Positions 32,358 through 55,029 of a DNA stretch of 64,000 nt are shown in pieces. Origin of the DNA: Octopus vulgaris. Lineage: Eukaryota. Position 1 is the stretch's first letter, and each line of letters begins with the position of its first letter. The stretch spans positions 9,114,001-9,178,000 of the forward strand of contig OX597833.1 in the NCBI GenBank assembly GCA_951406725.2, given 5' to 3'. The position numbers were made by a program, and so were the translations under genes. The notes under the pieces were generated by a model. The model did not search any database. It was not told where the DNA came from and saw nothing but the letters and a program-made list of their open reading frames with translations.

Positions 32358-33695
32358 CTGAAAAATAATAATAATATATAAACACACAAACATATACACA
32401 CATACAGATTGAATATAACATCTCCTGGATTGTATTATGGACTGCTTTTCTGGATGATGCTAGTGGAAAGATCTGCTATTTGTGCCTGGAAGAGATCATG
32501 GGAATTTTATCTTAGAAGAAATCAATCAATAAGCACTAAAATCATAAATTCAGGAAAACTTTCAAAAGATATAATCCTGCAAGTTTTGTATTGAATTCTT
32601 AATATTTTGATATTCTGTTCCAAATCATAGCATTTATACATAAGGTATACCCTTGGAAATTTTTGCATTACCTATGGAGATTACAACCTGAAGACTTTTT
32701 TGGAAGCTTGTAAGACAAAATACCCAAACTTAAACAGGCTGCAACCTTTAAGGATCATGAAAACATCTGTCTACAAGATGCTATAGTAATTGAACTCTTC
32801 TTTCTACATTTAATTATGATTGCAAAATCAATAACCAGTAAATATGAATGAGTCAATTGGAATACTTAAATCTGAGCAAATACACAAAAATTATCCATTT
32901 TTGTCTATTATTTTCCTTTTAAATCAATTTGCTTTAGTATGAAAGACAGGGCAAGCTAATGACAATATCCATGTGTATTTATCCTTTATGTGTGGCTGTG
33001 TCAATGAATATTGACTGCTATCATGTTGATTGATATTTAACCTCTAAATAGGTGAAATCTAAACCAAATGTCCAAACATTTACCTACATAACTGTTCAAA
33101 GAACTGTCTCTTAGAGAATCATAAAACACTGACATCTATTTAATGAAAAAAATGGCTATAAAATCTTCTTGTCAATATCAGGCTTGAAAACTAACTAATA
33201 ATTAATTAGCAAGCTGGAATAAATTTTTTTTTATCTCTTTGACCTTTAAATTCTTACAAATGATTCCATTTAAAATAAATTCCATCTTAAAGCTAAATTG
33301 TTTGATGTTTTAAATATTCTTCTGAAGAAATATTTTCTATTTTTTACCAACATTTTATTTTATTGTTATATATTTTTTGTTTCATCATTTTCTTGTAATT
33401 TTTATTAAATATAGTAAAAAAAAGTTTATTAAAAAGACATTTTTAACATCCAACTGATTTAGAAAAGTCTTCTATGTGAAAACCTAAAACAAATATTTCC
33501 ATTTATTGCAATCAACATTTTAGGAATTACTCCTTACCAAATACTTTTGTTTATCAGAATAGCATCACACTGGTGAAGAACACTTAACAATGGTACTGTT
33601 CATGGTGATGCTCTTTACATTTTTGAGATGAAATTTAAAGAATGATTTTAGAACCAAAACTATTGTAATTTTCAACTGAATTAACTTCGTAAATA

Positions 33696-34002
33696 CTAGC
33701 AGTATCACCTGGCGTTGCTCGGGTTTGTAAGGGAAATAACTATATAAGCATTTTTAGAGAGTTACTTCCCTTATATAATCCGAGCAAAAATCATTAAAAA
33801 TGCGGAAAAATGATGGTAAATTTTTTTTAAAACCGTAGACTCATCGTAGACGTGCGCTAATACCCAGAAGGGCTCGATATGAATCACGACTATAAGATAC
33901 CCACTTTTGGTTAAACGGCCCCGCAAAATGTGGGAGTAGTTAGGAATCTAAATCGGAGGAGACAGAGTCTCACACACACAACTTCAATTTTATATATAAA
34001 GA
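33696..34002 (-). mobile_element. Non-autonomous Helitron (307 bp)
   Basis: Minus strand reads A|TCTTTATATATA...CCCGAGCAACGCCAGG...CTAG|T: 5' TC, subterminal GC-rich hairpin, 3' CTAG, inserted between A and T with no TSD. Confidence 0.85.
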
Positions 34003-34201
34003 TTTCCTCTCAAACAATTTCATTTTAGTTTCAACTAGAAAATGGAACTTATTATAGTCTTGGACAGATAATCTTTACAGGCTTTCAGAACTTTCTGCAG
34101 AACAGATTTGAGAAGAACAAGTAAAGCTCTTTCTATACAGAATTTAGCTGACAACTTCTTTCCGAAGACCTTTGGAATATTAAATATAATATATGCTTTA
34201 C

Positions 34202-34242
<41 letters not shown>

Positions 34243-34244
34243 TC

Positions 34245-35570
34245 TTAGCTCTTAGATCCTCCAGTGTTTTCTGCACAACAGGTAACGAGCCTTCTCTGAA
34301 TCTCCAGACATCCTGATTGCTTGCCTTCTTCCTGACTCCACTTGGGCCAGATCCTTTTGCTTTCATGTTTTCCTGAAACATACATCTTCCTTGGTCTTCC
34401 CTTCAGTCTCTGGCATCCACTCCATCACAATGGTAACCTGTCTCTCCTGCCAGTAAACTCTATCTGCCTCTTAATCACCATTTCCTGCAAACTTCCCAGG
34501 CTCGTCTCATCACCTCTTTGTTTCTCACTCTTTCCTCGTAAGCAATACCCAGCATTGAATGTAGACAGCATTGAGGGAACATGTCCAGCAATTGAGAGAC
34601 CTTTGCTGTCTTCTTCCAGGTTTCACAGGAGTAGATGCCTGTTGGTATAACAAGAGCTGAGTACAGCTGAAGTTTTATCTTCTTACTGATGATTTTTGAT
34701 CTCCATATTGGACGAAGGTATTGGAATACTGATGTTGTTTCACCTATCCTGGTTAGCACTGACTTTTGCATCATACTACTTGAAACTATAGCTTCCAAGA
34801 CAGGCAACCTTATCAACGTTCTGTTTAGCCTTGTTTAGATGCAGGAGGACCTACAAGATGATCGAAAGCATGGAATGATGGTTCCATTACCCCCAAAAGA
34901 TAATCTGGTGAACTGTAACAGCTGGCATAGCATTACAGCTGTGTCCTGCTGAATAGATTAAAGAAGGAGATTGAAACTGTGTTGAGAGAGAAGCAGACAG
35001 GATTTTGGAGTGGCAGGTCTTGTGTGGGACAGATTTTCATGTTGTGGAATATAACTGAGCAAAGTAGAAAACATAGACTGCAGCTGTTTATTGATTTCAT
35101 TTTTTTTAAAGAAAGCATTTGACAGAATTCACCAAGATTCACTCTGGAATATTCTGAGAATCTAAGGAGTTCCAAGCAGATATATCAACATTTTTAAGTC
35201 TCTGAATAAAAACTCACAGTCTTGTGTGAAGAAGAGCAGTAGAACCAGAGATATATCCAAAATTGTTACTGGAGTGAAACAGGGTTGTATCTTGTCACCA
35301 TTTCTGTTCCTGATGCGAAGCAATGGATAGTTTTAGAATATCATGGGGAGTGAAAAGACAGATGGGCTTTGATTTTGTAGATGACTTGTCCTTATTAAGC
35401 TCCTATAGAGAAACACTACAGGCCATGACAGATGGCCTTTACAGTTAAGAGGTGAAAGCAGGATCGCAGATTAATGCTGAAAAGACCAAAGCCATGTCAA
35501 ATGGTGGTACCCAAGCAGAACTTGTCAGTCTTGGACAAGACAAAATCAAGTGCATTGACAAGTTTACATA
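34245..35570. mobile_element. RTE LINE with inverted 5' part (34801-35570 on plus, 34245-34800 on minus)
   Basis: Plus part: LREKQTGFWSGRSC..FIDF..KAFD..GVKQGCILSPFLF..FVDD..KTKAM..DKFTY. Minus part: LGS.IVSS..RIG..IWRSKIISKKIKLQLYSALVIPTGIYSCETW. Confidence 0.85.
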
Positions 35571-35929
35571 TATATATGCATGTATGCGGACATATACAAA
35601 CAGTTCTATTTTCCTGTTGCAACAAGAAAACGGATCTTAAAACATGAGTATATATAGAGAGAGGCTGTTTAATCATCATTAGCAGAAGTTACAGAATGAC
35701 TCAAGGGCCAATGGTTTATACCATCATCATCATCATCGTCTGCTTTCCATGCTGGCATGGGTTGGACGGTTTGACAGATGGCTGCACCAGGCTCCAATCT
35801 AATCTGGCAGAGTTTCTACAGCTGGATGCCCTTCCTAATGCCGACCACTCACACACACACACACACACATACATTGTTTATTTAAAGGGCATAATACATA
35901 TCTTTAAGAGCCTAAATCCAGTTGCAACC

Positions 35930-36700
35930 CAAGATCCTGTCTACTTGACCAACGATATATGATTTAATCTATCATATGTGAGGCAGAAGTTACTGCAATC
36001 CTAAATAATAATACAACAGAAAAGAAGACTTATATTATATGAAGGTGAATTTAAAAATTGCTCTGGCAATCACATAGCCCCCTTCCGACATAAGGGCAAA
36101 AGTAAAGCTACTAAGTTGGCTAGCTATGTATGGAATTTGAAAGATAACAAAACACCACATGTGATTAAATGCAAAGTAAATGAGAAATCCATACCTTTTG
36201 TGAATGTCTTATTTTCTTTCGTAGAAGAAATGAACCAATCAACAAAATTGCTGTTTGAAAATACCTCAAACTAAGATTGTTTGAAACCTTTTTCTATGGA
36301 AAAGAAAATCAAACTCATGGCTGTAAAACTTGCCACAACAGCTGTAGTTACAGAACAGTGAACAATGTTCTTTTTGGATGCATTTGTATACTGGAGATAT
36401 TTTCTAAGTTCACTTTGAATTTAACTCATTTCAGATTGCCTTGTACAACAGGAGCGATTGTCACCGTTGTATGGTGAATTCATCAATTAAAGATGTGATT
36501 TTCTCTATCCTATTTTTATTGTCTAATTCTCTGAATTTCTTCTAAAGGCTATTTGGATCTATTTGTCATAGATGAGGGGGTTACCTTGGATGTGTATTCA
36601 TCTTACAATTACTGGTTTCTGATTGTTGGATATAGTTAAACAAATTTGTTTAAAACTGAGTGCTTTATTTATATCTGCCTGGATTTTTTAATCCCTTTTC
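35930..36700 (+). mobile_element. Penelope-like element 3' remnant (GIY-YIG region and tail)
   Basis: EGEFKNCSGNHIAPFRHKGKSKATKLASYVWNLKDNKTPHVIK resembles the C-terminal half of PLE GIY-YIG endonucleases. Confidence 0.7.
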
Positions 36701-37399
36701 TCTTCTTGTATGTGTGTGTATACACACAAACACACACACACACATGTATATATGTATATATATACACACACATACACACTTAAAAGGTTGTTACTGCTCT
36801 AAAGTTTTAACGTGTTCTTCTTTTCGGACTTGTGAACTACTGACCAATACATACAAACATACATACATACAAATATTATTTATTAGCGATGGAAGCAACA
36901 TCAGTACCAAAAAGCAATCTTTATATTCAACTTAACATGGATGTTTTGTTAGAACACCTTAGCCTTGAGAGAACCTCTCATATAGTTGCTTGGTGCATTT
37001 GGACATAAAGATTACCTGATGTCACAGATCACCAGCAGGCTTATTTGTGACAGAAGCACTATTATAGTGCTTCTGTCACAAATAAGCCTGCTGGTGATCT
37101 GTGACATCAGTGTCTGAGTAGATATTCTATATATTGTAGCAGAGAAATTTGTTTTGGTATGTGGTGACCAAATGTCTCCTATTGATGGTGTCCAGTTGAC
37201 TAAAATAATGTGAATTATGGCACCCATAACAGGTGATTCTTGTGTCTGCTTTTATGCACCAAGTGCCTATATGAGAGGTTCTCTCAAGGCTATTAATGCA
37301 GTATTTAGTGTTCCAACAAGATATTCATGTTAAGTTGAGAGACTTGTAATTATAGAGGCATTAAATTACTGGACCATGTGATGAATATTACAGAGGGAG

Positions 37400-38690
37400 T
37401 TATAGCTCAATTAATTAGGAACAGAATAAGACTAGATGAAATGCAGATCAGCATTGTTAGCGGAGAGGTACCAAGAATGCTATTTTCATAGACAAGCAAC
37501 TGCAAAAGAAGTATTTAGCTAAGAACGAGTTGTTGTACTTGGCATTTGTTGATCTAGAGAAAGCCTTTGGCATAGTACCCCATTCTGTGATATGGCGGTG
37601 CCTGAGGTAGCCAGGGAGAGATGAATGGCTTGTGAAAGCAGTACAGGCCATATACAGGGATGCTGTTAGCAAAGAAAGAGTTGGCCATGGGTACAGTGAT
37701 GAATTTAGTGTACAGGTAGGTGTCCACCAAGAGTTGGTCCTCAACCCCCTCCTATTCATCATCATCCTCAAAACCATATCAGAGGAATCTAAGACTGGAA
37801 GCCCATGGGAACTACTATAGGCTGGTGATCTTGCCCTCAGCAGAGTCTGTAACAGAATTATAAAAGAAATTTCAGGTGTGGAACCAGAACCTGGAATCTA
37901 AGTCTTAAAATAAACTTAGCAAAGACTAAGGTCCGAGTAAGCAAAGAATTGGACAGGGCCCTTCACCCATCAGGGAAATGGTCCTGTAGTAAGGGTGTAG
38001 ACAGAAACTCCATTCAGTGTACCCAGTGCAAGCTATGGACACACAAGAGGTGCAGTAGATTAGTTAGAAGATTAACAGAGAAAGTAGTATTTGTATGTGG
38101 AAGATGTACGGAAGCCATAATGGCCATAAATACACAGGAGATTGATCTCCTTAAATGTCCCAGTGGCTCTCTGGAAGTTGTAGATAATTTCTGCTACCTG
38201 GGTGCCCTATTTAGCAGTAGAGGAGATTATACAGAAAGTGTAATCTCAAGAATAGTATGGAGAGAGTTCAGAGAGCTTTTACCTCTGTTGGCAACCAAAA
38301 GTCTCTCTCTCTCTGAGTGAACCTGCAATGCTGCGTGGGCCCTGAATGTGGAGGACATGTGAAGGCTGGAGTGGGACGAAGCTAGTATCTTTTACTGGAT
38401 GTGACATGTCTGTATGCATGTGCAAAAGAGCATGAGTGTATTGAAGAAGAAGTTAGGTATAAGAGGAATTATATGCAGTGTGCAAGAGAGGAGACTGCAC
38501 TGGTTTGGTCATGTGATGCAGATGGATGAGGATAGCTGGATAAAGAAGTGCCGATGGAAGAGGGAGACCCAGGAAGACAAGTTTTGAAGGCCAATCTCAA
38601 AATGCTAAACCTTATGAAGGAAATGACAGAGGACCGAGAAATGTGGTGCATTGCTGTATTTGAGAAGACCTGCCCACCACAACAGAATTG
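37400..38690 (+). mobile_element. RTE-type LINE remnant with a Cys/His-rich insert in the RT C-terminal region
   Basis: LAFVDLEKAF, VGVHQELVLNPLLF, PWELL*AGDL, KTKV, SIQCTQCKLWTHKRC..CGRC, VVDNFCYLG. Confidence 0.85.
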
Positions 38691-40734
38691 AGATCCTAAA
38701 AGCAAGGTACCATGTAAAAAGCACTGGTGCTGGTGCCACTTAAAAAAATTTGGTGATGGTGCCACAAAAAAGAACCTGATACACTCTGTGGAGTGGTTGG
38801 CATTAGGAAGGGCATCCAACTATAGAAACCAAGCCAAAATCAGACTATGGAACCTGATGTGGCCCCTAGTCTACCAGTTCCTGTTAAGCTGTCCAATCCA
38901 TGCCAGTATGGAAAGCAGAAATTAAATGATGATGATGATAATGATGATCACACACACACACACACACACACACAACTATTGTGGGCACAGAATACTAACC
39001 CAAATACTATGAATTCAAAATTCTGGTTTTCTAGTACAATACTCTCAGTTGATATGTGGTTTAATTTGCATCAAACCATTTTCACAGAAATCTCTGCTGC
39101 TTTCATAATCCATTTATGTACAAATATATATCAGTCAAAATGCAAGGAACAATTTTAAACTTTCTCCTGCTGTGCTCCCTATATTTGAGCATAGCACATC
39201 TACAACTACATTATTCAGTATGTCTTTTAAATTTTCCCACTGCAAGTTTGATTTGAGGAGATTTGACTCCTTCTTGATGGTCAAGTACCACATAGATGCC
39301 TGCCTATATCCAGTATACCTCCTGTATTGAACACCTTACTGTGTGGCCCTAGACCAGAGTGAGATTTCATTGCTGTTTCCAGCAAGTCAAGAGTCCATCA
39401 TTGGCTCCCAATGTTTCTCTTCCACTGATTTGTTTCAACTATCAGAGAATTACAGCCACATATTCTCCAAGGAACACTTTAGAAGCTGTTTAATTGGTTT
39501 CTGAGAATAGATTAAAGCAGCTGACCTCACAGTGATATACCTAATGTTAAAACAGATTGTAATTATTGAATTAACATTAAAACAAGGAGTTAACTCTGCA
39601 TAGATAACCCAACAGCTATTTTCTCCTCAGTAAAACCTAACTACCAAACCACAAAATGACTTGTATGTGTTTGTAGTTTTGGTGTGAAAATAACTGATTA
39701 GGGAATCTAAAATGACATTGATTAGAAAATTTCCTATGGGACCTCTAAATGGAATACATAGATTTAATATTAATTATGATGATGATTGGCATCGAATAAT
39801 TTCTAATCTTACATTCCAGCCATGGCCACCTTGTCTTGTCTACAACTATAAATGTTCAGTGTGTCTAAGATGGTAAGGTGTGACTTGAAAGTTATCTATT
39901 TATCTAGATCAGGACTATTGGTAAAGGACAAACTACTGTGTATAGTTGTCTTGAGGTTGCAAGCTCTAATTCCACTGAGGTAGACTTTGTTCTTATTCTT
40001 CTGGGGTCATTAAAATAAAGTAACAGTAAAATATTGGGATTAATTTGCCTAGCTGGCTTTGTAATATTAATAGAGCCAATGAAGGGGCCTGCATGTGCTT
40101 GCTTGACAAACTAGAAATAACAGCCAAATCTACTTCAAGTCACACCTTACCATCTTAGACACACTGAACATTTATACTTGTAGATAAGACAAGGTGGCCA
40201 TGGCTGGAATGTAGAATCAGAAATTATTTGGTGCCAATCATCATCATAATTAATATTAAATCTATGTATTCCATTTAGAGGCCCCATAGGAAATTTTCTA
40301 ATCAATGTCATTTTAGATTCCCTAATCAGTTATTTTCACACCAAAACTACAAACACATACAAGTCATTTTGTGGTTTGGTAGTTAGGTTTTACTGAGAAG
40401 ATTAAATAAGACTGAAACATGTCCTGAGTTATTTAACTTACCAAATGTCAGACACTTTCTCTCCCTCTCAGTCTATGTCAAAGTTCTCTCCCTTGCCCCT
40501 CTTGATAACAATTGCCATTAACCCAAATAACTTTTGTTCTCATTGTGAGTGTTAATTGTCATTGATTAAGAATTTGTTTTGGCTCCCTTTACTCAGTGTG
40601 TTTCATGAGCATTTAGCTACATATTTTTCATGCAGAAGACACTCTGAGGAAATTGACTTTCTTTCGGATTGTCAACTGTGATAAATTGAAATTATTAATT
40701 AAAATTATAGAGAAAATAATGATAATAACAAATC

Positions 40735-41425
40735 CAGCAAATTGTTTTTAGGAAGGGAAGAATTAGTTGCTTCCATTGACTCTGGTGCTCAACCGGATCT
40801 TATTTTATTGATTCCAAATGGGTGAAAGGCAAAGGAAACCTGGGCGAGATCGAAGCTGAGAATGTACAGAGCTGGAGGAAACGCCGCCACTAAGCATTTT
40901 GCCAAACATGCCAAGGATTCTACCACCTTGCCACTTTAATGGTGATGATGATGATGATGATGGTTTCAAATTTTTGCACAAAGCCAGCATTTTTTGGAGA
41001 AGTGGGTAAACCAGTTATAGCGACCACAGTGTTCATCTGATTTCATTGACCCCCAAAAGGAGGAAAGGTAAAGTCAGCCTCAGCAGAATTTGAACTCAGA
41101 ACAGAAATATGCCTGAAATGCTGCTAAGCATTTTGCCTAGCATTCTAATGGTTCTGCTAGCTTGCCTAAGTGATGATAATGATGGTGATGATGATGATGA
41201 TGATAATAATAATAATGATGATTTCGAGTTTTAGCACAAGGCTAGCAAGTCGATTACTCCAGTACTCAACTGGTACTTATCTTATCGACCCTGAAAGAAT
41301 GAAAAGCAAAGTTGACCCCTGATAGAATTTGAACTCAGAACGTGAAGATAGATGAAATACCATTAAGCAGTTTGACTGGTGCGCTAACAATTCTGCCAGC
41401 TCATCACCTTTAAATAATAATAATG

Positions 41426-41459
<34 letters not shown>

Positions 41460-41760
41460 CAATTTTTTTTTTTTTTACCTCAGCACAAAGTCAGTAATTG
41501 TTGGCCCTGGAGGAACAAAGAAAGCAAAACTGATCTTGGTGTGATTTGAACTCAGAACATAAAAAGTGAAAACAAATATTATAGATATTTTTCCAAGCAG
41601 TCTAATGATTCTGCTCATCCACCACAGATTGATTGGGGTGGGAAAGCTTACATTCTTTTAGAGTTGAAAGTTTGTATTATTAACCCTGGAAGGTAAAACA
41701 AAGCTCAGCAGAACTTGAACCCAGAATGTAAAGAACTGAACCAATGATTGCAAGGCTAAC
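40735..41760 (-). mobile_element. Cluster of 4-5 tandem tRNA-derived SINE copies; same family near 9442-9620, 13930-14128(+), 31250-31740, 47860-48010(+), 63427-63600(+)
   Basis: B-box-like GAGTTCAAAT followed by GTCAACTTTGCCTTTCATCCTTTCGGGGTCGATAAAATAAGTACCAG-like core (resembles Deu/Nin-domain SINEs from memory); (AAT)n or (GAT)n tails. Confidence 0.75.
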
Positions 41761-43985
41761 ACTGTTAACAATCCAGTGGAAATGGCTTATCTACAAACAA
41801 ACCTGTTGACATAGAAAATAAAGTGACATTAATATATTTCTGTTTACAATAATTGAATGTATTAATGATGGAATAGTTTGAGAAAACAGTAAAAGACAAG
41901 AAAAGCTGTTGTTAAGGAATTGTCCAATGAAGGGCTACAAGCAATGTTTCTGTGACTAATGTTGAGGGCAGCAACTATTGGAGCTATCAAGGTGATCTCA
42001 GTCTATTAACTGACTAATTAAGCATAATTACATTAGATATTAATTAACATTGAATGCAATTTGGAAGACTCAATGCTTTTATAATTTTTAACATAACAGA
42101 AATTTTCAGCAATGTATGGAGGGAGTGTGTACAAAGCAATAGAGTGGAGTTAAATGTTTAAATACAAGAGGACAGGGGTGAAAGGAAGATGAGGTGAACG
42201 GGTGAAGGAAGTGGAGATTGAGTGATGGAGAAAATGATGGTGTTAATAATGGTGACCCTTATAGATGTAATGGTGGTGGTGGCAGTGGTGGCTGTGGGCA
42301 TTGTGAATGTTGTTGCTGTTGCTGCTGTTGTTGTTGTTGTCATCATGAAAATTGTGACTGGAAAGGCATCCAAACACTGGAAACACGAGGACAAGCAGTT
42401 CCCTGCATTTCATTTGCAACCTCTAACTTTTAGGTGGGGACAATTGCCTTTATGTTCTGGTCTTGAGGGTCTTGTGAAGTACATCAGAGGACAATCTTCT
42501 TTTCTGTAAACCAAGCCATTAAATAAATAAGAGATTGCAGAAAGCAACATTGAAACCCATGTAATGCAAAATCTATGAATTCAGTCTGAGTCTTATTGTT
42601 TTGATGGCCGTGGCTGGCCTGGCTGATAGAATTGCTTCAGATCATACTTGACAAGATTTGATCTGATAAGATTTTGTTTTGAAATAACTACATGGCTGTG
42701 GAGTCGAAATTATTTTAAACTGGAGCTGTGTCTCAAACACACACACACACACACACAGACACAGACACAGACAGACACACACTCTCTCTCTCTCACCACA
42801 TACCTTTCACGTATCTATTGTCTCCCATTGTTAAAGTAAACACCAACAGTGCTAATATTCCACAACAACAATCACAAAATTCTATTACTATTTTACCAAA
42901 GAAGTGTTGGATATCAGTACCGAACGGGTGATTGTATTTACGAATTTTCTGATGAATTGAAGTGAAATCTGAGCAAGTTTTTCTTCCTTAGTTGGAAAAT
43001 GTTTGGACGTAGTATTGAGGGACTTGCCTATCATTGTGGAGGTGTGTGAGTGTGTGTTTGAGATGTTATAGATATCTGTTTGTACAGAGAATTTCTACCT
43101 TGACATCAAAAGTTACTTTCTGAAATAGACTTAAAATCTGGAGTTAAATCCAGATTAAAAAAAATATTAAAACAAAAGAAATAGAATTAAGGGCTGAGAG
43201 GAAAGTGCAATAATGAGTGGATGATCCTTGATGGTTTGACTAAAGGGCATTGATTCGGTTAATGTTTAACTGTAAGTCAATGTTTAAAGAATAATGTTTA
43301 ATTGAATGTTTCAATATGAGACTAATTTAGTTCATGAGGTAATTAGCATTTCTTACTAATTATACCTTCTCCAGAATCCAATAAAAATACCATTTTTTTA
43401 TGCTGTAAATTTTAACACTTGGAATCCTAAGCCAAGGCATGGTTGTGTGCTGCTCTCAAAACACACAATTATGTCAAACTCACTTAAAACTTATTTTTTG
43501 TGTTAAGTATGAGTGAGTGGTTAGCAACTTCACTAACTCCATTGTCTTAGGTTCAATCCCATTGTATGACAAGTTTGGCAAATGTGTTTTTTATCATAAT
43601 TCAGAATTGGTGAAAGCTTTGTAAAGTGAGGAGGAGAACCCCCCCCCCCCTAGAAGTGTGGTTGCTTATGTTCATATGTGCCCCAGTTGCACCGTCCAAC
43701 CCATACCAGCATGGAAAGCAGACACTAAACGATGATGATGATGATGTGTGTGTGGATATGTGTATGAGTACGTATATGCACCTACATGTTTGTGTGTGTA
43801 TGGGCATGTACATATACATGTTTGTGTGAGTGTGTACGTATGTAGATGTTATCAACGCAGGAGGTTTTCATGTCAATGTGTTGTGAGAATATGGTTGCGT
43901 GTATTTTTTATCTTTTATATTTTTTCCTAACTATTAGAGTAACTTCCCTTTTATTCAACGGTTATTTTATGGTGTCTGTTGCCAT

Positions 43986-44048
43986 TAATAGCCGATGAGA
44001 ATGCATCGTAGCTCTTAGCTCCAGCATTTGAAACTCTGAGTACTATTA
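43986..44048 (+). ncRNA. Minimal type I hammerhead ribozyme-like motif (U4C variant)
   Basis: TAATAG-CCGATGA-GAATGC..GCATTT-GAA-ACTCTGAGT-A-CTATTA: stems I, II, palindromic III, GUA site. Confidence 0.6.
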
Positions 44049-44112
44049 TGACAACTTACTGATTGTCCTAAACAGTTCGTATGTACACACCCACACCCAC
44101 ACACACATACAT

Positions 44113-44154
<42 letters not shown>

Positions 44155-44246
44155 TTAGAGACAAAACCACTATTATGCAAATCAAACAAAGAAAGACTTA
44201 ATCCAATACATAAAAAAATTTTATAAATTAAATATAATTAAGATAT

Positions 44247-44292
44247 CCACTACGATCGTTTCTTGTCACTTCTATTGACATTCATCAGGTGG
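44247..44292 (-). ncRNA. Minimal type I hammerhead ribozyme (Penelope-associated type)
   Basis: CCAC-CUGAUGA-A-UGUCA-AUAGAAG-UGACA-A-GAA-ACGAUCGU-A-GUGG: intact core, palindromic stem III, GUA site; first pair of stem II is an A.A mismatch. Confidence 0.72.
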
Positions 44293-44414
44293 TTTCAAGA
44301 CCTTCTTTGCAAGTTTTAAACTGAAGTCTTCAGTTTAAAACTTGCAAAGAAAGTCTTGTATTGGATTAAGTCTTTCTTTGTTTGATTTGCATAATAGTGG
44401 TTTTGTCTCTAATA

Positions 44415-44459
<45 letters not shown>

Positions 44460-44463
<4 letters not shown>

Positions 44464-46078
44464 AACATGGATTTATAGAGAAAATTTCAACTTCTGAAAC
44501 CAAAATTCAGTCAACTTAGAAAAGGAGACAAAAAAAAAAAAAAATTAGATGAAAAAATGTGATTCTTTATACATGAATACATCAACAAATGAACCAGTGG
44601 TAGTATGGATGGCACCTGGAAAACTGATCCTAGCAGAGAGGGAAAAAACATCTAAGAAGATTTTAGAGTCAAAAACACTATGGCTACAGAAATATGAAAA
44701 GACCAATGAGAACGGACAGATAAAAGCTAAACACTGGCTTTTGATGATAACCTCCAGATCTGAAAAGAGTTCAAACACTAAAAGAAAAGAAGGATTTTCA
44801 CATAACAGACAAAGATCCATCGATCAGTCCCCAAAGAAACAAAAACTTTTGACTCTCCACAGATGTAACAGGAAGTGAGACAAGTCACAAATCTGCAGAA
44901 GCCAAGTCACAAGTCCAACAAAACTACACAGAACAATAACAGAGTGAGAAACCAACCCATAAATGAAGGATCAAAAGTTTACTTAGCCAGAGATAACCAG
45001 CCTGAAGTATGAACATACAGAAGAATGTGAAATCTCAACATAAACACTCCGAAGTCAAATGAAAATCCTTTTTTAAAAGAGATCTTTCATCAGAAAAAGG
45101 ACAAAAAAATAATACCATTCCTCAAAAGACATTTGGAAACATGTACAAGTAAACCTTGAATAATAAATTTATCCAACAAAATAGTATCTCAAGAAGAAAT
45201 TAAACTGTTGGGGAATGGGCTAAAATTTACTTCCACTCCAAAATTGAACCAAAGTGAGTGTAAAAGACACAAAAGATTTTCGCCAAAAGTCATGATTAAG
45301 AGAATTCTTTCAAAATGCTGAACAAACGGATGAATGACGAGTAAAGAACAAGAAAGGATTTGAACCACCTTTAATCAGAGACAAACATTTGGAAGAATAA
45401 ATAACCTTGTGACAGTCAGTGGAGTCCAACATTACAAAGAGGAAATGTGTTGATTTAATTAAAAAAACAATTTACAAAACAAATCATCAATAATCAAGGA
45501 AACCAACAAAGATGGAGAAATCATAATTTGGGACAAAACCCATTCGAGAGACAAGGTTCTGGAACAACTTAATAATAAACCCTTCGACAGGAAGCTAAAT
45601 AAAAACAAAGATAAAAAAGCCATGAACAAAGCATGTGGATTCATCTCAAGGCACCAAAATAGCCTCAGATAGAATGATGTCAATTATTTAACCAACTTTG
45701 AAGTAAAGACCAATAAATTCAATGGATCACCTAAAGTTCATAAATCAAAACTAATTCAAGACAACATAACAGGAAAACATAAAACAAATGTCAAAATTGC
45801 AAAACCTACAGACTGGAAACTACACTCAATCATAGCTGGACAAACATAAAAAAGCACACTGCTTAAATGACCGAAAGGAGAGGATACTGAAACCTTTATG
45901 CAACATGGTACCAAGCTTCATCTGAGGAAATATGGGATTTCTAAATTACATTCCTCAAAGTGTACATCAAGAGACAATTCTCCCTAGCTTAGATATAAGT
46001 AGTCCATACACCAATATCCCACATGACTTGGGAATAGAAAGTGTGAACCTCTGCTTGACAAAATGTCCAGGAAATATT
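44460..46078 (+). mobile_element. Penelope-like retroelement remnant (N-terminus and RT up to motif A)
   Basis: LLGNGLKFTSTPK, IIKETNKDGEIIIWDK, FNGSPKVHKS, LDISSPYTNIPHDLG correspond to PLE RT motifs (LxKGLxFxPTP, ADKG, YGLPKIHK, DVxSLYTNIP); many stops. Confidence 0.85.
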
Positions 46079-46420
46079 ACTCTTTTACTCTTTAACTCTT
46101 TCACTTGTTTCAGTCATTTGACTGTGGCCATGATGGAGCACCACCTTTAGTCGAGCAAATCGACCCCAGGACTTATTCTTTGTAAGCCTAGTACTTATTC
46201 TATCAGTCTCTTTTGCCGAACTGCTAAGTTACGGGGATGTAAACACACCACCATTGGTTGTCAAGCGATGTTGGGGGACAAACACAGACACACACACACA
46301 CATATATGTATACATATATACGATGGGCTTCATTCAGTTTCCGTCTACCAAATCCACTCACAAGGCTTGAAAAATGATATTTGTTTACAATTAGCATATA
46401 AAAAAGACAAGGAAACCACA

Positions 46421-46497
<77 letters not shown>

Positions 46498-47169
46498 AGT
46501 TTCAGTTAGGTAAATTTCCTCATAAGGTTTTGGTCAGGTTGGGGCTGTAGTGGAAACACCTGCTCAAGGTACCACTTAATAGGATTATATGAAGACACTA
46601 CCAACAGTATTAGACTTTGTTGAAAACTGCACAACATTCCAAAGATAAATGAAGAACTCTTGGCTAAAGGAGTGGTACACATATAAGAATCTATTATTAA
46701 CAGGGATGAGAAGCTGAGGGGGGAGGGAAACCCCTTTTGTTAGTGGTTGCATGGCTGGTTGATTGATTGGTTTGTTGGTGCCTTCTAAAAGCTAATTAGT
46801 TTCTCAGGAATCTAAAAGGTAAGAGGGAGGGAAAAGTGGGAGTAGCAGTGGCAGTAGTAGTGGTGCTCTTAGTGAAATGTAGTGATGTGGTGGCAAGCAA
46901 GCTTGTTAAGAATATAAGAGCCAAGAAGATGGAGCAAAATGAGGGCAGTGGAAGGAGTAACTCCAGTTGAATATTCATCCCCATCATCATCATCATCATC
47001 TTTTTAATGTCTGTTGTCCATACTGACACAGGTTGCACAGTTTGACAGGAACCTGCAAGCTGGAGGGTTGCACCAGGATCAAAATGTCTGCTTTGGCATA
47101 GTTTCTATGGCCAGATGCCCTTCCTAAAGCCAACCCATTTACAAAGTGTACTGGATGCTTTTGAAGCAA

Positions 47170-47199
<30 letters not shown>

Positions 47200-47202
<3 letters not shown>

Positions 47203-47830
47203 AGTAGTCTTATTTTTATCACGTGCTTTCACACTCACCACCGAGCACAGCTCTGTGTGCCTTGGGTATTTGTGGTTTGTTTTGTTGTTATTTTTCCTGT
47301 ATTGAAAGTGCTTTGCGTAGGATGTGTGCAGTACCTAGTGCTGCTATTTTCTTTATGTTATATACATTCATAAGTCCTGGTGTTTTGGTTATGTATTTGT
47401 CTGAATGTCTTTTAATCATACTTAATGCACCTACTATTATAGGAATTGTTTCTGTTTTAGGTTCCACATTCGAGTTACCCTCCATCTATGTCAAACTTGG
47501 GTGCTGCATCCTAAATTCTCTCATTACTTTTCTTATCTTCCTGTCTAATTTAGTTAGTCCATTTAGAGACCAATTAAGGATACTGAAGCTGTAACTTATA
47601 ACTGGGATGGCTAGAGTGTTGATACCTATCATCTTGTTTTTTGCATTGAGCTCTCTTTTAAGTATTAATCTAACTTGTCTATGGTATTTCTTCCTTATCT
47701 TCTCTTTCACTTGTGTGTGTTGTACTGTATCTTGTTCACTGATTTGTATGTCTGGCTTTGGTCTAGTTTCCCTCTTTTCAAGGTTGGTTTGGCACATTTT
47801 TATAAGTAGAATTTCATGTTTATTTCTTTG
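47200..47830 (-). mobile_element. R4/Dong-like LINE remnant, internally deleted
   Basis: ILKRELNAKNKMIGINTLAIPVISYSF..LDRKIRK and IPIIVGALSMI..IAALGTAHILRKALS. Confidence 0.8.
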
Positions 47831-49034
47831 GTAAATTCATGCACTTTATTATTATTATTATTATTATTTGCCTGTCTTTACATTCTGTGTTCAAATGCCT
47901 CTGCAGTTGACTTTACCTTTCATCCTTTTGGAATCAATGGAATAAGTACCAGTGGAGTACTGGGGTCGATAAAACTGACTAGCCCTTCCCACAAAACTTC
48001 AGGCCTTGTAGTTTGTTATTATTATTATTAAGATATGAAACAATAGAATAGAGGTGTGGAAACCTCTTATTAAGGGAACTGAAGTGAACATATGAGGACG
48101 TTGAGACAAGTGCTGATGTGTAAGTCAAGGACAATGTGTGTGTGTGTGTGTCTGTGAGGGTGTGTGTATGTGTGAGTGTGGGTGAGGGTGTATGTGTATG
48201 TGAGACTGAGTGTGTGTGAGGGTGTGTGTGTGTGTGTGAATGTAGTAGATAGTAAGAAGGGAAAAACTGAGATGTGGGGGTGGGGCTTTGTGATGTATGG
48301 GGAAGATAATAATTGTGGAATGATATATCAAGGAATGTGGGTTGAAAGAAAGACTGAGAAAAACACAAGAGGAATTGTAGAAAGTTCATGTAAGGATAGT
48401 GAGCTTCAGAGATGAAAGATGAGCAGTGAGATGATGCTGGGTATGAGTCAACCTAGCAAACCCACAAGCATGGAAAAATGGATATAATGATAATGAGGAT
48501 GAATGAGCAGGTAGATGCATGCATACATACATATGTATGTGTATATATATATATGTGTGTGTGTGTGTACATACATAGCTATCCATCCGTCTACTCTCCC
48601 CTGATCCCTACCTCTACTGTTTGCTCAATTTCTCCTTCCCTCTCATGCTCTACATTACCCACTTTCTCAGCACCTATCATTGTAAATATACAAATAACTT
48701 ATAAATAATATATACCCTCATCATTTAATGTTCATTTTCTATGCTGGCATAGGTTAGACAACTTGACAGGAACTGGCAAACCAGAAGACTGCGCCAAGCT
48801 CTGCTGTTTGCTTTGGTATGGCTTCTATTGCTGGACACCCTTCCTAATGTCAACCACTTTATAGAGTGCACTGGGTGCTTTTTACATGGCATTATCAGCA
48901 GTGAGGTCACCAACTAATTTACAAAACCCCACAACTGAGCAGTATTCAGGGAGGTGGCTTTGTGCCAAGTGAGGTTACAATATAAATAGAACAGAATTAG
49001 GTGTCTTGCAGTAAAAGAGATACATGGCGAAAGA

Positions 49035-49117
<83 letters not shown>

Positions 49118-49174
49118 TAAGTATTAGGGGTGAGAGTGAAAGTGAGAGTGGTGAGTAATGAAAAATAGAGAAAA

Positions 49175-50628
49175 ATTAAATCACCTGTTATATATAGATG
49201 ACTTAGACATCTTTGGAAAGAGTGAAAGTGAAATAACTGGTCTGGTATGCTTATAAAAAACAAAAGGTAAAGTTGTGTCGTCTGATGGTATAGAACTATC
49301 CAATGGCGAGAGAATCAAAGATGTTGAGATTGATGGATATAAGTATCTGGGTATTTTGGAGTCTGACAAAACAGAGGAGAGTGAGATGAAAGAAAGTTTT
49401 AGGTGAGAATACCTCAGAAGAATCAAATCAATTATGGAAAGTAGACTCAATGGAAAGAACAAGACCAGGGCAAAGAATAGATGAGCTGTTTCCTCAATGC
49501 AATGGAGTGCAGGTGTTGTTGGTTGAACAAAGAACAAGATTGAGGAAATGGAGAGAAAAACCAAGAAGTGATGACAATTAACAAAGAACTGAACCCAAAA
49601 AGCAATATTGACTGGCTGCATGTGTCTAGGAACAAGGGAGGAAGAAGCCTCATAAGATGCAAGTTCTGTGTTGCCTACAAGAAGAAAAATCTGGGATGGG
49701 ACATCAAACAGCAGAGTGAATTCTTGCTTGTCACTGTTAGAAATAACAACATGATACCTACCGAAAATATGACACCCCAAAACATTTAAAAACCAAGATG
49801 AAGAGCAAAGATTAAACAACTGGAAAATGAAATCAATGCATGGGTAGTACCTGAGAGAAATCAAAGAGAAAGACAAGACCAACACCTGGAGGTGGCACTG
49901 AGACATTGATATGTGGCACCCAAGAACAAATTCTGAGAGTTAATTACATCAAATTCAAAATATCACATGTGAGTGAGTGTAGCAAACTGGCACCAAAGGA
50001 ATAGAAAAGGAGGCACGATATAGTGGCTAAGATTGTTCACTTGAGATTGAGTGAGAAGTATAGTCTTGGAAGAACACAGAAATGCTATGAACAAAAACCA
50101 GAAGGCATCACTGAGAATAATGAATATAAGATCCTTGAGACCCTGTGGGATTTTACAATCCAATGTAGCTCCCTAAAAGATGCCTAAAGACCAGACATTG
50201 TTGTAGTGGATTAAAGGAAAAAGGAAACTAAGATTACAGATACTACCATACCTTGGGACACACATGGAAAAGGTGGAAAAACACAAATTGCTAAAAGACA
50301 AAATCGTAAGAATGCGGTCAGTGTAACTGTTATGGGGCAGTCAGTGCACTAAAAATCAAGTTTGAGAAATATGCGGGAGAAATTGAAATTGACATGAGAG
50401 TAGAGCATGCTAAAAAAAACCTACTCTGTTGGGTGGGAAGAGGAAGGATTTTGAGATTGGTGATTGGGTGTTAAGCATCTTCCATGATACTTAACATCTA
50501 GGTACCAAGTCTTATAACTCATGGAAAAAGACCCTGAGAGAGACTCTGTGAGACCTTTGACAACAGATTGTTGTCTGCACTCACTGAATTAACCAGAGCA
50601 AGTAAGATCGAAAGTTCTGAGAAGTAAA

Positions 50629-50632
<4 letters not shown>
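49175..50632 (+). mobile_element. R4/Dong-like LINE remnant ending in (TAA)n
   Basis: NHLLYIDDL, YKYLGILE, EYLRRIKSIMESRLNGKNK, LWDFTIQC, RPDIVVVD; many stops. Confidence 0.8.
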
Positions 50633-50684
<52 letters not shown>

Positions 50685-51200
50685 GGTATAAAAGTTGGGC
50701 TACAGCAGGTATAAAAGATGGGTTACAGAAGGTACAAAAGATGGGCTACAGCAAATATTCTGCTCAATACCACAGATTTGCTTGTCAGTTGTTTGACTAT
50801 AACCAGTTGACCATGTCCCTCAGTGTCTGATGATATGTGCATCTCTGACCACAAGCAGAAGTAATGGGGGAGCATCATAACCATGTGTTGAGAGGGATTC
50901 TTTGGAGTTTGGATAATTCACCTTTGGAAACATGGGTGTTTTGTTCAACATCCTTAAAAAAAACCTTAGTCAAGGACGTTTTAAGTGATATACTCTATTC
51001 TGCTTGAAGAAAATTCTAACTGGGCTCCACCTTTAAGGTCATGTGTTTTTATCTTGATACGAGATCACCATGTTGCACACATATGGTTGTGATGCATGTA
51101 CCTGGTGTACCCTTATCAGACAGGTAGTCATGATGGGTAAACTGGGCTTTGTATATTTTACCCCAGTGTCACTTTGATTGCATGCATTGCTCTCTTACTC

Positions 51201-51240
<40 letters not shown>

Positions 51241-51244
<4 letters not shown>

Positions 51245-52005
51245 TGACCCAAAATGCCAGTTCTGTAACGATGAGATTGAAACAATAGACCACCTAATCT
51301 CAGGGTGTAGAGTCTTAGCATCTCCAGAATATAAAGCATGACATGACAGAGTCGGCCAGTATTTACATTGGACAATATGTCGGCATTATAAAATCAAAAC
51401 CGCTGACAAATGGTATAAACATCATCCTGAAGCTGTGACTGAGGGAGAAAATGTGTCGATTCTATGGGACTTCACCGTGCAGACCGACAGGACTATAAAA
51501 GCTAATAAACTGGATATTATTATAAAAGATCAGACAAAAAGTATGTGTTTATTAATCGACATGAGTATTCCCTGTGATCACAATATAGTGGCGAAAGAAT
51601 TTGACAAGATTAGTAAATATAAAGACCTGCTAATGGAAATTGGAAAAATGTGGCATCTCAAGACGACTACAGTACCAGTGATTGTAGGATCTCTAGGAAT
51701 GATAAAAAAGGTACTGAAACCTATTTGAAAATGATTCCAGGCTTACCAGCCCTACAGGAAGTGCAAAAAATCGTATTAACTGGAATGGCTCATGTACTGA
51801 GAAGAGCACTATCGCTGTGAAAATAACATCCATCCATGAATTTATTTATTTATTAATTTTTAAATACATATTTTATCTTTGAATTTGCGCGTGTAATCTG
51901 GGAATGCATACAATGCCCTTCTCTGCCCTAGGTGTATGGAAAACACTCAGCGAGAAACGGAAGAAAATTTGAAGAAAGAAGGAAAAAACACGATAATAAT
52001 AATAA
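51241..52005 (+). mobile_element. R4/Dong-like LINE 3' fragment (CCHC and restriction-like endonuclease) between (TAA)n tracts
   Basis: CQFCNDEIETIDHLISGC, ILWDFTVQTDRTIKANKLDIII, IDMSIP, KISKYKDL. Confidence 0.87.
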
Positions 52006-53010
52006 GTAAAAATGTAAGTTGAGGATGTTACATGTAAATAATCTCATAGACCGAGCAGAAAAAATAAGGCAAAAGTTCTCATGGTGGAAAAGAAGACTTG
52101 GGAATCAAGTTGAACAGTTCAACAGATCTTGGAAGGTTAAATAATAGTAATTAAAAAGAAGTCAGGGAAGGAAAAACATAAAGATGAGCTTAAAAGAAGG
52201 TTACAGGTAGCTAAAGAAGAGGAAAGACAAAAATTTAAGGCAAAGTTAAGGCACAAAAACAAAACAAAAAGAGACCAGATACCAACGGAAGAAACCAATA
52301 TTGGCTGAAGAGGGTCTTCAGAAACAATGAAAGAAGATTTTACCAACAGCTGAACAATGAGGATGAACATGAGGGGAATGTTTACCAAACACTGAAGCAG
52401 TAAGGAACTTTTGGTTAGATATTTGGAACAAAGAAGTTCAATGAAACAGAAAATTAGACTATTTATGGAAATGAAAAAGGGAAATGCAAAATAAAACAAC
52501 CCCTGGGCCAAACGGTGTTCAGGGATTCTGGTTCCAATGTCTCTCAAGTACACACAGCTCTAAACAACTGTTTCTTAGTGACTGTATAGAAAATAAAATA
52601 CCAATATGAATGATAAAATGGACAGTACTGATAGAGAGCAGAAGTTAGCAATTATAGAGCAATCAGATGCTTACCAATACTCTGGGAATTATTAACTGGC
52701 CTCTTAGCAGATAAGATATAAAACATTCTGGAGAAGAAGAATCTGTTGCTAGAAAAGTAAGAAGGATGCAGAAAGATGCCTGCTTGCATCTTTTTGATCG
52801 ACAGTGTGATATTGAGATAAGAAGTTTCTTAATGGATGGATAGACTACAAAAAGCATAAGATACTGTATCACACTATCATTTCTGCTTAGCGCATGCACA
52901 CACACACACACACAAGATCTCAGTATTTGTTTTTCTGTTCTTGAAGTGAAATAATTATCTTATATACTAAAATAGAATTTTAAAATACTTGAGAGAGAGA
53001 GAGAGAGAGA

Positions 53011-53081
<71 letters not shown>

Positions 53082-53842
53082 TGTGTGTGTGTTTGTTTGA
53101 ATGAGAGAAAGAATAAAAGAATGAGATAACTAAAGATCTAGTTGATATTACAAACTTTGCTATGTCTTGATATTCTTCCTTCCTCACTCCTTTCTGTTTA
53201 AATTTCCACATCACTTTCCTCCACTTTCTCTTGTATTCTCTGTCTTGTTGTCTCTCTACCTCTCTCTCTCTCCTTATCTCTCCCTTCCTCTCTTTCTCAT
53301 TTCCTCTTCCCCTTCATCTTTCCCTAGCTGAGTTACCTTACTGCCATGCAAAAAGGAAGTAGGTAGGTAGGACATACTATTGTATTAATATATAAATTTT
53401 AATATATTTGAAATGATTTCCTGATTGAATTGGAGGTAATAATGAGAAGTGAAGAGAGGGAAGAGTAGAAATAAATAAATAAATAAGAAATATGAGATGG
53501 AGATGAAAAGAATGAGAGGTGGAAGTAAAGAGGTCAAAGAAGTCAGAGAGAAAGGGGGAGAAAGAGATAAGGAAGGAGATTAGTGGAAGGGAGGGGAAAG
53601 AAAGATTCAGTTTGTTTTTGAAAAAAGAAAGGGGGGGGGAAACTCATTTTAAAAATAAAACACATATGGAACGTTAGATAGCATCCACATTATCTAGGTT
53701 AGGGTTGGCAATCTAAAACGGTAGTGTGTGTCTGAGGCAAAAAGGAAGGGAGAGTGGAGGGAATTTTAAGTTTGCTTTTCTAAAGAAAGGGATTGAGTTG
53801 GACAAGCAACAGCCGTGCAGAGATCTTTTACTGTTTACTCAC

Positions 53843-54205: not shown

Positions 54206-55029
54206 GAGGGTGCAATGGGTAAATTGTCATCATTTTTAGTTTTGTGCATGTGCATTTTTTGTAGGGTCAGCTGGGCACTGTCTGTGAGGAAAACAACACC
54301 ATGATGCAATTTACTCAGCCAGAAATTTGGAAACGACATGCTGTACTGCTTGGCATTTGTGCTGGAAGCTCCAATATGAACATTTTAGAGTGTTTGGGTG
54401 TCAATCTGAGGACATCTACCAAGAGTGATAAAAATCAAACATCTAGTCAACATCATGGTGTTTGGAGTGATCACTAGTGATGGCAAAGTTATGCCTCCAT
54501 TCATCTTCTCACATGGCCTCAGACTCGACATAGAAGCCTACATCAAGTGCCTGGAGGAGGTAGTGCTGCCCTGGATCAAGAGGGTGGCTTCTGGAAGACC
54601 CTACGTCTGGCAACAGGACTCTGCACCATGTCACACAAGTAGGAGAACGCAGTCATGGCAGTCAGACAATTTCGGTGACCACATCACCCCTAACATCTGG
54701 CCACCTAACTCCCTAGACTGCAACACCCTTGATTATTATGTGTGGGGTGCAGTTGAGCGAGAGACCAACAAAACTCCTTGTCACACCAAAGATGAACTGA
54801 AGGCAAGGATTATGACAGTATTCGCCAATTTAAATAAGGAGACCATCCAAAAGACTTGCAGGATCTTCCAAAGTCATCTGGAGGCCATGGCTGATTTTAT
54901 TGAATAAATTTACTCTTTAGTATTTCAAGATATTTTTATGTAATTTTGGTAAATATATCTGTTAAAATGAAATGTCAGAGTTATTTTCATTTTTGTGTAA
55001 TTTAGATGACAGTTATTCACTGCACCCTG
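54206..55029 (+). mobile_element. Tc1/mariner DD37D (maT-type) transposon, internally deleted
   Basis: TA|GAGGGTGCAATGGGTAAATTGTCATC...GATGACAGTTATTCACTGCACCCTG|TA TIRs and TA TSD; ORF 54425-54907 has QQDSAPCH and NTLDY with 37 residues between the two Asp. Confidence 0.9.

Follow-up and report, generated by a model that had tools for sequence, protein, structure and literature searches.

A hammerhead ribozyme in an octopus C2CD2 intron points to a Hydra-clade-like Penelope family with putatively spliced short copies and a ribozyme that likely cleaves in vivo

Hammerhead ribozymes are carried by several described Penelope-like elements (PLEs). In the available text on Penelope of Drosophila virilis (Schostak 2008, PMC2377424; Cervera and de la Pena 2014, PMC4209133), a short exon 1 is followed by a 75-nt pseudo-LTR (pLTR) intron that ends just before a hammerhead with a short palindromic stem III, pLTRs lie head-to-head, and genomic copies are described as retaining the intron, the majority of elements containing introns (PMC2377424). 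The Hydra clade (Craig et al. 2021, PMC8557442, including Hydra-1_Obim) is described, in the portions of that paper at hand, by a GIY-YIG endonuclease at the C terminus, a DKT motif, a CxCx5C linker, CxxC and CxH motifs, the absence of GxKF and a hammerhead with a mismatch at the base of stem II, together with (TA)n targets, inverted 5'-truncated arms and a one-sided tail. For Poseidon of Anolis (Frangieh 2024, PMC11167929), the accessible text reports reverse transcription that starts internally at two tail-defining sites, on both strands, insertion of mostly uncleaved RNA and no RNA ends at the hammerhead site. Non-LTR retrozymes (PMC7229834; bioRxiv 10.64898/2026.07.22.740005, in their available parts) are short repeats related to pLTRs, non-coding and bearing a type I hammerhead, arranged as head-to-tail tandems, and U6/LINE-1 chimeric pseudogenes (Moldovan 2019, PMC6789731, likewise) consist of U6 ending in T5, joined to retroelement RNA at scattered junctions and retrotransposed. 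As far as the text at hand goes, two questions are left open: whether Penelope-like elements use an antisense or an unspliced sense RNA template (PMC3846280), and whether minimal PLE hammerheads cut in vivo (PMC4209133, PMC11167929, PMC8557442).

Here we describe a hammerhead in a 64,000-nt stretch of Octopus vulgaris DNA (contig OX597833.1; hereafter the window) and the family to which it belongs. The minus strand at positions 44292-44247 reads CCAC CTGATGA A TGTCA ATAGAAG TGACA A GAAA CGATCG TA GTGG and is a minimal type I hammerhead (44247..44292) with a 4-bp stem I (CCAC/GUGG), a 5-bp stem II (UGUCA/UGACA), the core CUGAUGA plus GAAA, and the palindrome ACGAUCGU as stem III. The core (CUGANGA, GAAA and UH closed by stem I) is complete, and the predicted cut follows GUA, between 44251 and 44250; letters, core, stems and cut site all agree with the sequence-only reading. 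The G10.1-C11.1 pair is absent and replaced by A·A throughout the family. A descriptor search of both strands of the window found this hammerhead as the sole match, and 60 windows shuffled in 2-mer blocks gave one match in total. An Rfam check with the Hammerhead_1 model did return the motif (15.2 bits, E 0.25), but the match is weak and under the gathering score of 34, and an Rfam scan of 10 kb did not detect the hammerhead, giving only microsatellite-driven miRNA matches. The folding energy of the 46-mer was not better than that of shuffled sequences (z -0.89), so the assignment as a Penelope pLTR hammerhead is supported by the complete core, the family copies and their variation and not by folding energy. 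The computed probability of the active fold in a monomer is 0.0016 and the computed energy of the palindrome duplex -10 kcal/mol, which bears out the earlier suggestion that the palindromic stem III is predicted to favour a dimer.

The hammerhead lies on the pre-mRNA strand of the host gene, as had been claimed for a C2CD2L-like gene. Exons on the minus strand are identical to octopus C2CD2 proteins (SMP and C2), and the exons at 54085-53843 and 32357-32208 flank a 21.5-kb intron of C2CD2/C2CD2L (32358..53842, minus strand), in which the cut site lies about 9.6 kb past the donor and 11.9 kb ahead of the acceptor; the first coding exon is about 116 kb outside the window. At the exon before this intron, two donors lie 60 nt apart (53903-53843, minus strand), the longer form matching an Argonauta protein and the shorter form Octopus proteins. 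Segments at 54410-54907 (plus strand), 51342-51728 (plus strand), 37457-38320 and 34475-34834 (minus strand) in host introns we take, by eye, to be pieces of DDE transposases and LINE RT/endonucleases.

Within the intron, the hammerhead sits in a 270-bp head-to-head pLTR pair flanked by two (TA)n runs, the target microsatellite (44107..44147 on the left and 44418..44459 on the right). On the minus strand, a remnant of element exon 1, the 5' leader ending in GAAG (44302..44327), is joined without the 1.1-kb intron to element exon 2 (5' UTR/pLTR; 44148..44301), which by alignment to the copy L082 runs from the splice junction (44302|44301) through the hammerhead to a short 3' end with no tail and differs from L082 exon 2 at 5 positions in 153 nt. 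The same leader precedes a GT donor in the intron-bearing copies L082, L063, L098 and L131, and exon 2 is preceded by an AG acceptor in unspliced copies. Since the leader lies in cis before the GT donor of the element, a trans-spliced leader was rejected as the source of the 5' 27 nt. The inverted second arm (44328..44419, plus strand) consists of the leader and the first 6 nt of exon 2, then skips about 86 nt, hammerhead included, at a TG microhomology and continues with the pLTR's 3' part; the inverted-repeat arms match over 57 nt at 100% (I1) and 31 nt at 97% (I14). From this anatomy, the window copy would be an intron-less copy made from the spliced 5' end of the element mRNA. The insertion is 94-99% identical to its best matches among the other copies, and appears young (97-99% identity to other copies) and shows no sign of domestication. 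Contigs of four public runs break at the repeats of this locus.

The sequence-only reading had tied the ribozyme to a nearby Penelope RT remnant in the opposite orientation. The remnant is there, on the plus strand from about 44460 (44460..46060), with GLKF, DKG and PKIHK motifs and many stops and frameshifts, but the tie to the ribozyme does not hold. It belongs to an unrelated and much older C-terminal-endonuclease Penelope-like family, whose best relatives are only 65-86% identical to it and carry GLKF, DKG and, C-terminally, an endonuclease whose linker has CxxC, and the window pLTR or hammerhead is present at 0 of 19 other loci of that family. By its motifs it reads as Neptune-like, a label that follows the accessible part of PMC8557442, and it was rejected as the parent of the ribozyme. 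A further decayed Penelope-like RT fragment with a PKIHK motif lies in the next host intron (57950-58426, minus strand). At 36035-36199 (plus strand), in the same intron as the hammerhead, tblastn (E 6e-6) matches the endonuclease end of the Hydra-like homologues P0006 and P0007 and marks a further decayed Hydra-clade fragment with no descriptor-positive hammerhead.

The proposed genome-wide copy count, made with a 27-mer of the ribozyme, gave 169 exact matches and 0 for the control, and the wider family must be larger, given 344 first-look candidates for the ORF start. A domesticated intronic ribozyme of the CPEB3-like kind, which would need to be single-copy and conserved at its locus across species, was rejected on this count. 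At locus L081 (C10), a pLTR-ORF-pLTR arrangement with a 2979-bp period places the hammerhead in sense orientation to an ORF for RT plus GIY-YIG. The order of the element is promoter region, exon 1, a 1.1-kb intron from GT to AG, exon 2 with the hammerhead and tail, the RT/GIY-YIG ORF, and a 3' UTR with a second GT donor. L082 shows the ORF, the 3' UTR up to a GTAAGT donor, 1.7 kb, a short exon ending in GAAG, a GTACGT donor, a 1116-nt intron, the AG acceptor and exon 2. By eye, the L081 and L082 ORFs have a C-terminal GIY-YIG, no CCHH, a CxCx5C linker, CxxC and CxH, motifs that their homologues share; the L082 ORF has DKT in place of DKG, lacks GxKF, and has KWK at the RWK position, where P0006 and P0007 have RWK. 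A Pfam search with the AT-biased ORF query gave no RT match. These motifs, together with the pLTR hammerhead in sense to the ORF and insertion into (TA)n, suggest a Hydra-clade-like Penelope parent, a placement from motifs and not from a tree. Inverted 5'-truncated arms and a one-sided tail are further traits common to the family and that clade. Unlike Hydra-1_Obim and the Hydra clade as far as described in PMC8557442, the octopus family has a 1.1-kb pLTR intron and a second donor in the 3' UTR, and its protein and hammerhead, compared by eye, differ from those of Hydra-1_Obim. With Penelope of D. virilis it shares a short exon 1, a pLTR intron ending just before the hammerhead, a short palindromic stem III and head-to-head pLTRs. 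With retrozymes it shares short non-coding pLTR-related repeats bearing a type I hammerhead, but the octopus copies are solo or head-to-head and not head-to-tail tandem units; retrozyme identity was therefore rejected, and no dimer or circle in cis is expected from these copies.

The L081, L082 and L152 ORFs contain a long asparagine-rich stretch between the RT thumb and the endonuclease linker, which resembles the N-rich inserts of rotifer Penelopes described in the accessible text of PMC3846280. Beside the Hydra-like element at L081 lies a second Penelope-like ORF fragment of another clade, with thumb and GIY-YIG (L081:6254-7267, minus strand). At loci L288-L311 there are four or more additional subfamilies in which intron-bearing pLTRs are joined to the ORF; several of these have no stop over the 1.9 kb covered.

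The window 46-mer is found unchanged in 26 of 199 parsed arms. The A·A mismatch, which the sequence-only reading took as a possible weakness, is not peculiar to this copy: A occupies 10.1 in 140 of 143 arms and 11.1 in 139 of 143, and by our own count from the part of PMC8557442 at hand (File S2), 15 of 25 published Hydra-clade hammerheads have a mismatch at 10.1/11.1. The mismatch thus appears to be clade-typical and not a sign of decay. Subfamilies are alike in the core, in stem I and in the four inner pairs of stem II, and differ at N7, at 10.1/11.1 and in loop II. Sister subfamilies have the palindrome ACAAUUGU in stem III; the two changes that turn ACGATCGT into ACAATTGT preserve the palindrome, and some copies show G-U and U-U intermediates. 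Among arms, core columns vary by 0.7% and other columns by 1.8%, but we set this aside as evidence because the parser favours similar sequences and CpG sites are found outside the core.

Genomic arms of the family carry the intron, an exon 1-exon 2 junction or a 3'UTR-exon 2 junction, and the same two 3' ends are shared by all three kinds. In an unbiased sample (the first 100 of 161 matches, representing 77 insertions, 76 of them classified by the longest arm), 38 were spliced, 15 unspliced, 2 spliced from the 3' UTR and 21 short. In a sister subfamily, counted over all of its 72 arms, spliced arms numbered 32 and unspliced arms 13, while 2 started at exon 2 and 25 were truncated inside it. 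None of 98 spliced arms reached past nt -33, a limit that we read as the putative transcription start. Such exon-1-spliced genomic copies imply that a sense, spliced RNA served as template. ORF-joined copies were examined at 25 loci with a pLTR tail leading into the ORF, chosen as the best among 40 that were scored out of the 344 candidates and mostly from sister subfamilies: 15 had the intron acceptor, 1 the 3'UTR junction and 0 the exon 1 junction, and 9 had no hammerhead directly upstream, so that 15 of 16 ORF-joined copies with the hammerhead upstream were unspliced. Full copies thus appear to keep the intron, as published, and short copies mostly lack it, in contrast to the retention described for the copies of D. 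virilis Penelope; the evidence for splicing comes mainly from short copies.

Two loci show unusual junctions. At L147:375-675 (from C1:189194700 on), each of the two inverted arms has foreign sequence of about 150 nt, with AG as its last bases, fused to the first nucleotide of exon 2; this sequence looks like a host exon that was spliced to the element acceptor and then retrotransposed. At L081:1783-5376 (C10), the one such locus, the 3'UTR-exon 2 junction is present in each of the two pLTRs beside the ORF, which fits a circular template (from back-splicing or cleavage-ligation) or a tandem precursor.

Among 69 head-to-head pairs, 62 carry one tail, on the longer arm in 32, on the shorter in 21 and on tied arms in 9; 6 pairs, including the window pair, have no tail. 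Both arms extend past the junction in 19 pairs and none of the 19 mixes classes, for pair loci partly selected for spliced arms. Fold-back of the cDNA as the sole source of the inverted arm misfits the 21 pairs with the tail on the shorter arm and was rejected in that form. The pairs would fit priming on both target strands at two internal sites on one RNA molecule, and Poseidon, in the available text, is alike in starting internally at two tail-defining sites on both strands. One pair (L021:1676-1780, C17) has a GC-rich spacer of about 100 nt between its arms with no Rfam match at the gathering score.

Hammerhead cleavage leaves a 5'-OH end, and the first nucleotide after the cut is nucleotide 51 of exon 2 (0-based). 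Of the insertions truncated within exon 2, 6 of 16 start at nt 49-51, where 0.9 are expected (P 1.3e-4); one of the 77 insertions, starting near nt 37-40, was dropped for want of an anchor, and its inclusion gives 6 of 17. Genome-wide, a 3-nt interval at the cut has 10 matches on ten chromosomes with unrelated flanks, while the interval upstream has 1, a point deletion in a full arm, and the interval downstream 3, from 2 insertions (P 0.002 against the flanking intervals with rough efficiency weights, 0.019 against the downstream interval alone); microhomology blurs the apparent 5' ends by 1-2 nt, 7 of the 10 matches having A before GTGG and 4 sharing TAA|GTGG. The sister-subfamily sample, which is blind to ends on the downstream side of the cut, has 9 of 25 arms starting no more than 2 nt from it, or 7 of 22 after clustered arms are collapsed (P 1.2e-4 against a uniform and 0.002 against the local rate). 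An ORF-bearing copy (L305) also starts at the cut.

At two loci (C4 and C25), U6 snRNA (Rfam RF00026; 102.5 and 101.4 bits) is joined via its terminal T5 exactly to GTGG, the first bases after the cut. The junction is present in both inverted arms at each locus, and a genome-wide pattern search finds only these four arms; at C25 the tail is on the short arm. The chimeras represent two events and belong to the sister subfamily (A·C, longer loop II), not to that of the window. They resemble the U6/LINE-1 pseudogenes in that U6 with a T5 end was joined to the RNA of a retroelement and then retrotransposed, but the partner is Penelope-like and the junction is fixed at the ribozyme cut, whereas the U6/LINE-1 junctions are scattered. 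According to the accessible part of PMC6789731, ligation of U6 by RtcB needs a 5'-OH. U6 at the cut site and the need for a 5'-OH argue, as fossil evidence, that the family ribozyme cleaves in vivo, and a template switch to U6 would equally need an RNA end at the cut site. From these ends, it is likely that the family's ribozyme cleaves in living cells, in about a tenth of templates, and that about nine in ten, including the template of the window copy, were uncut. Insertion of mostly uncleaved RNA is also described for Poseidon, but there, as far as the text of PMC11167929 at hand goes, no RNA ends lie at the hammerhead site, whereas about a tenth of octopus insertions start there.

Could these patterns have arisen in other ways? 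The splice junction is known here from genomic copies alone, and intron-less copies might then stem from a DNA deletion or from a separate non-autonomous family instead of spliced RNA. We consider this very improbable, since two different upstream sequences each stop precisely at a GT donor and continue with one and the same base, the one that follows an AG acceptor, three exon-1 variants track subfamilies that also hold unspliced members, and the 5' ends of spliced arms scatter over -33 to -10 with different flanks; spliced RNA is the reading we keep. The ribozyme might also be dead in vivo, with the clustering at GTGG due to stalling of the RT or to microhomology at an AT-rich boundary and the U6 joined by template switching at the stall. 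The low in vitro activity of this class, the lack of reads ending at the site in Anolis and the short microhomologies at several junctions speak for it, but varied partners (a TA repeat, the inverted arm at several positions, an intron arm, the tail and U6) converge on one base, the neighbouring intervals are nearly empty, and the pattern is repeated in a second subfamily. Moreover, if a 4-bp stem made the RT stall, ends would be expected at the 3' edge of the stem, not after it, and the U6 junction occurs in both arms, with the tail on the short arm at C25. A dead ribozyme is therefore unlikely in our view, and cleavage in vivo remains the preferred account of these ends.

A family ribozyme that appears active raises the further possibility that the window copy cuts the C2CD2 pre-mRNA co-transcriptionally, enough to affect splicing or output. 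The motif is in sense to the pre-mRNA, intact and identical to that of 26 of the parsed arms, and it would be accessible there: in the predicted fold of the host pre-mRNA, the two arms pair as a 90-bp hairpin, and the hammerhead, its stems I and II formed, loops out of it because the second arm has lost its own hammerhead, and so it is not masked. Against this, a search of the 184 kb spanning the gene found no second hammerhead apart from a poly-A artefact, the active fold of the monomer is computed to be rare, and the window copy lacks the tail and the 5' region of the ORF. In the available text of the cited work, monomeric minimal hammerheads gave no detectable cleavage (PMC4209133), the Anolis hammerhead needed the element protein (PMC11167929), and hammerhead cleavage within an intron left splicing intact (work cited by PMC2995048). 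The insertion is also young and bears no sign of domestication. An effect on the host is thus improbable: with no dimer partner in the gene and no context for binding of the element protein, cutting of the host pre-mRNA is probably negligible, and the hammerhead probably has no role for the host gene.

The reading that we prefer, and hold to be quite probable, is that the window copy is a short, promoter-less, intron-less 5'-end copy of a Hydra-clade-like Penelope element, inserted as an inverted pair into (TA)n of a host intron, whose hammerhead likely cuts the element's own RNAs in vivo, though only a minority of them, and is probably without a role for the host gene. In the mechanism we propose, reverse transcription would start inside the 5' UTR at two sites (the tail and the short end), with both target strands primed, and would run about 200-250 nt to the 5' end of the RNA. 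That end would usually be the cap (nt -33 to -20) and, in about a tenth of insertions, the 5'-OH made by the hammerhead, which may sometimes be ligated to U6 snRNA, probably by RtcB. Cleavage would need a dimer formed through the 8-bp palindrome or the element protein, neither of which the host pre-mRNA would offer in cis.

More tentatively, and at somewhat short of an even chance, all of these observations may belong to one replication scheme. A sense RNA would be the template, with both strands primed on one RNA at two internal sites; spliced mRNA would give short dead copies and unspliced RNA full ones; the hammerhead would cleave in vivo, its 5'-OH entering RtcB ligation; and L081 would derive from circular RNA made by back-splicing or cleavage-ligation. 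In such a scheme, since spliced mRNA yields short copies and unspliced RNA full ones, intron retention would be a filter and not the mark of an antisense mechanism.

In the literature searched, to which subscription papers such as Arkhipova 2003 and 2006 did not belong, we found nothing on spliced PLE copies in genomes, on PLE copies that begin at the cut site or on U6-PLE chimeras, and the accessible text of PMC8557442 mentions none of the three for the Hydra clade; some intron-less copies may already be in print. As regards the host gene, the finding is deflationary: what its intron contains is a young and ordinary piece of a transposon. For Penelope biology, the spliced copies, the ends at the cut site and the U6 junctions bear on both of its open questions, because spliced copies need a sense template and copies with cut-site or U6 junctions point to cleavage in vivo. 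The same counts (junction class, 5' end relative to the cut site, and U6 junctions) can be applied to any PLE family with a long-read assembly. The motif itself is of a known kind, and the value of the finding lies in the family and not in the weak host role proposed earlier.
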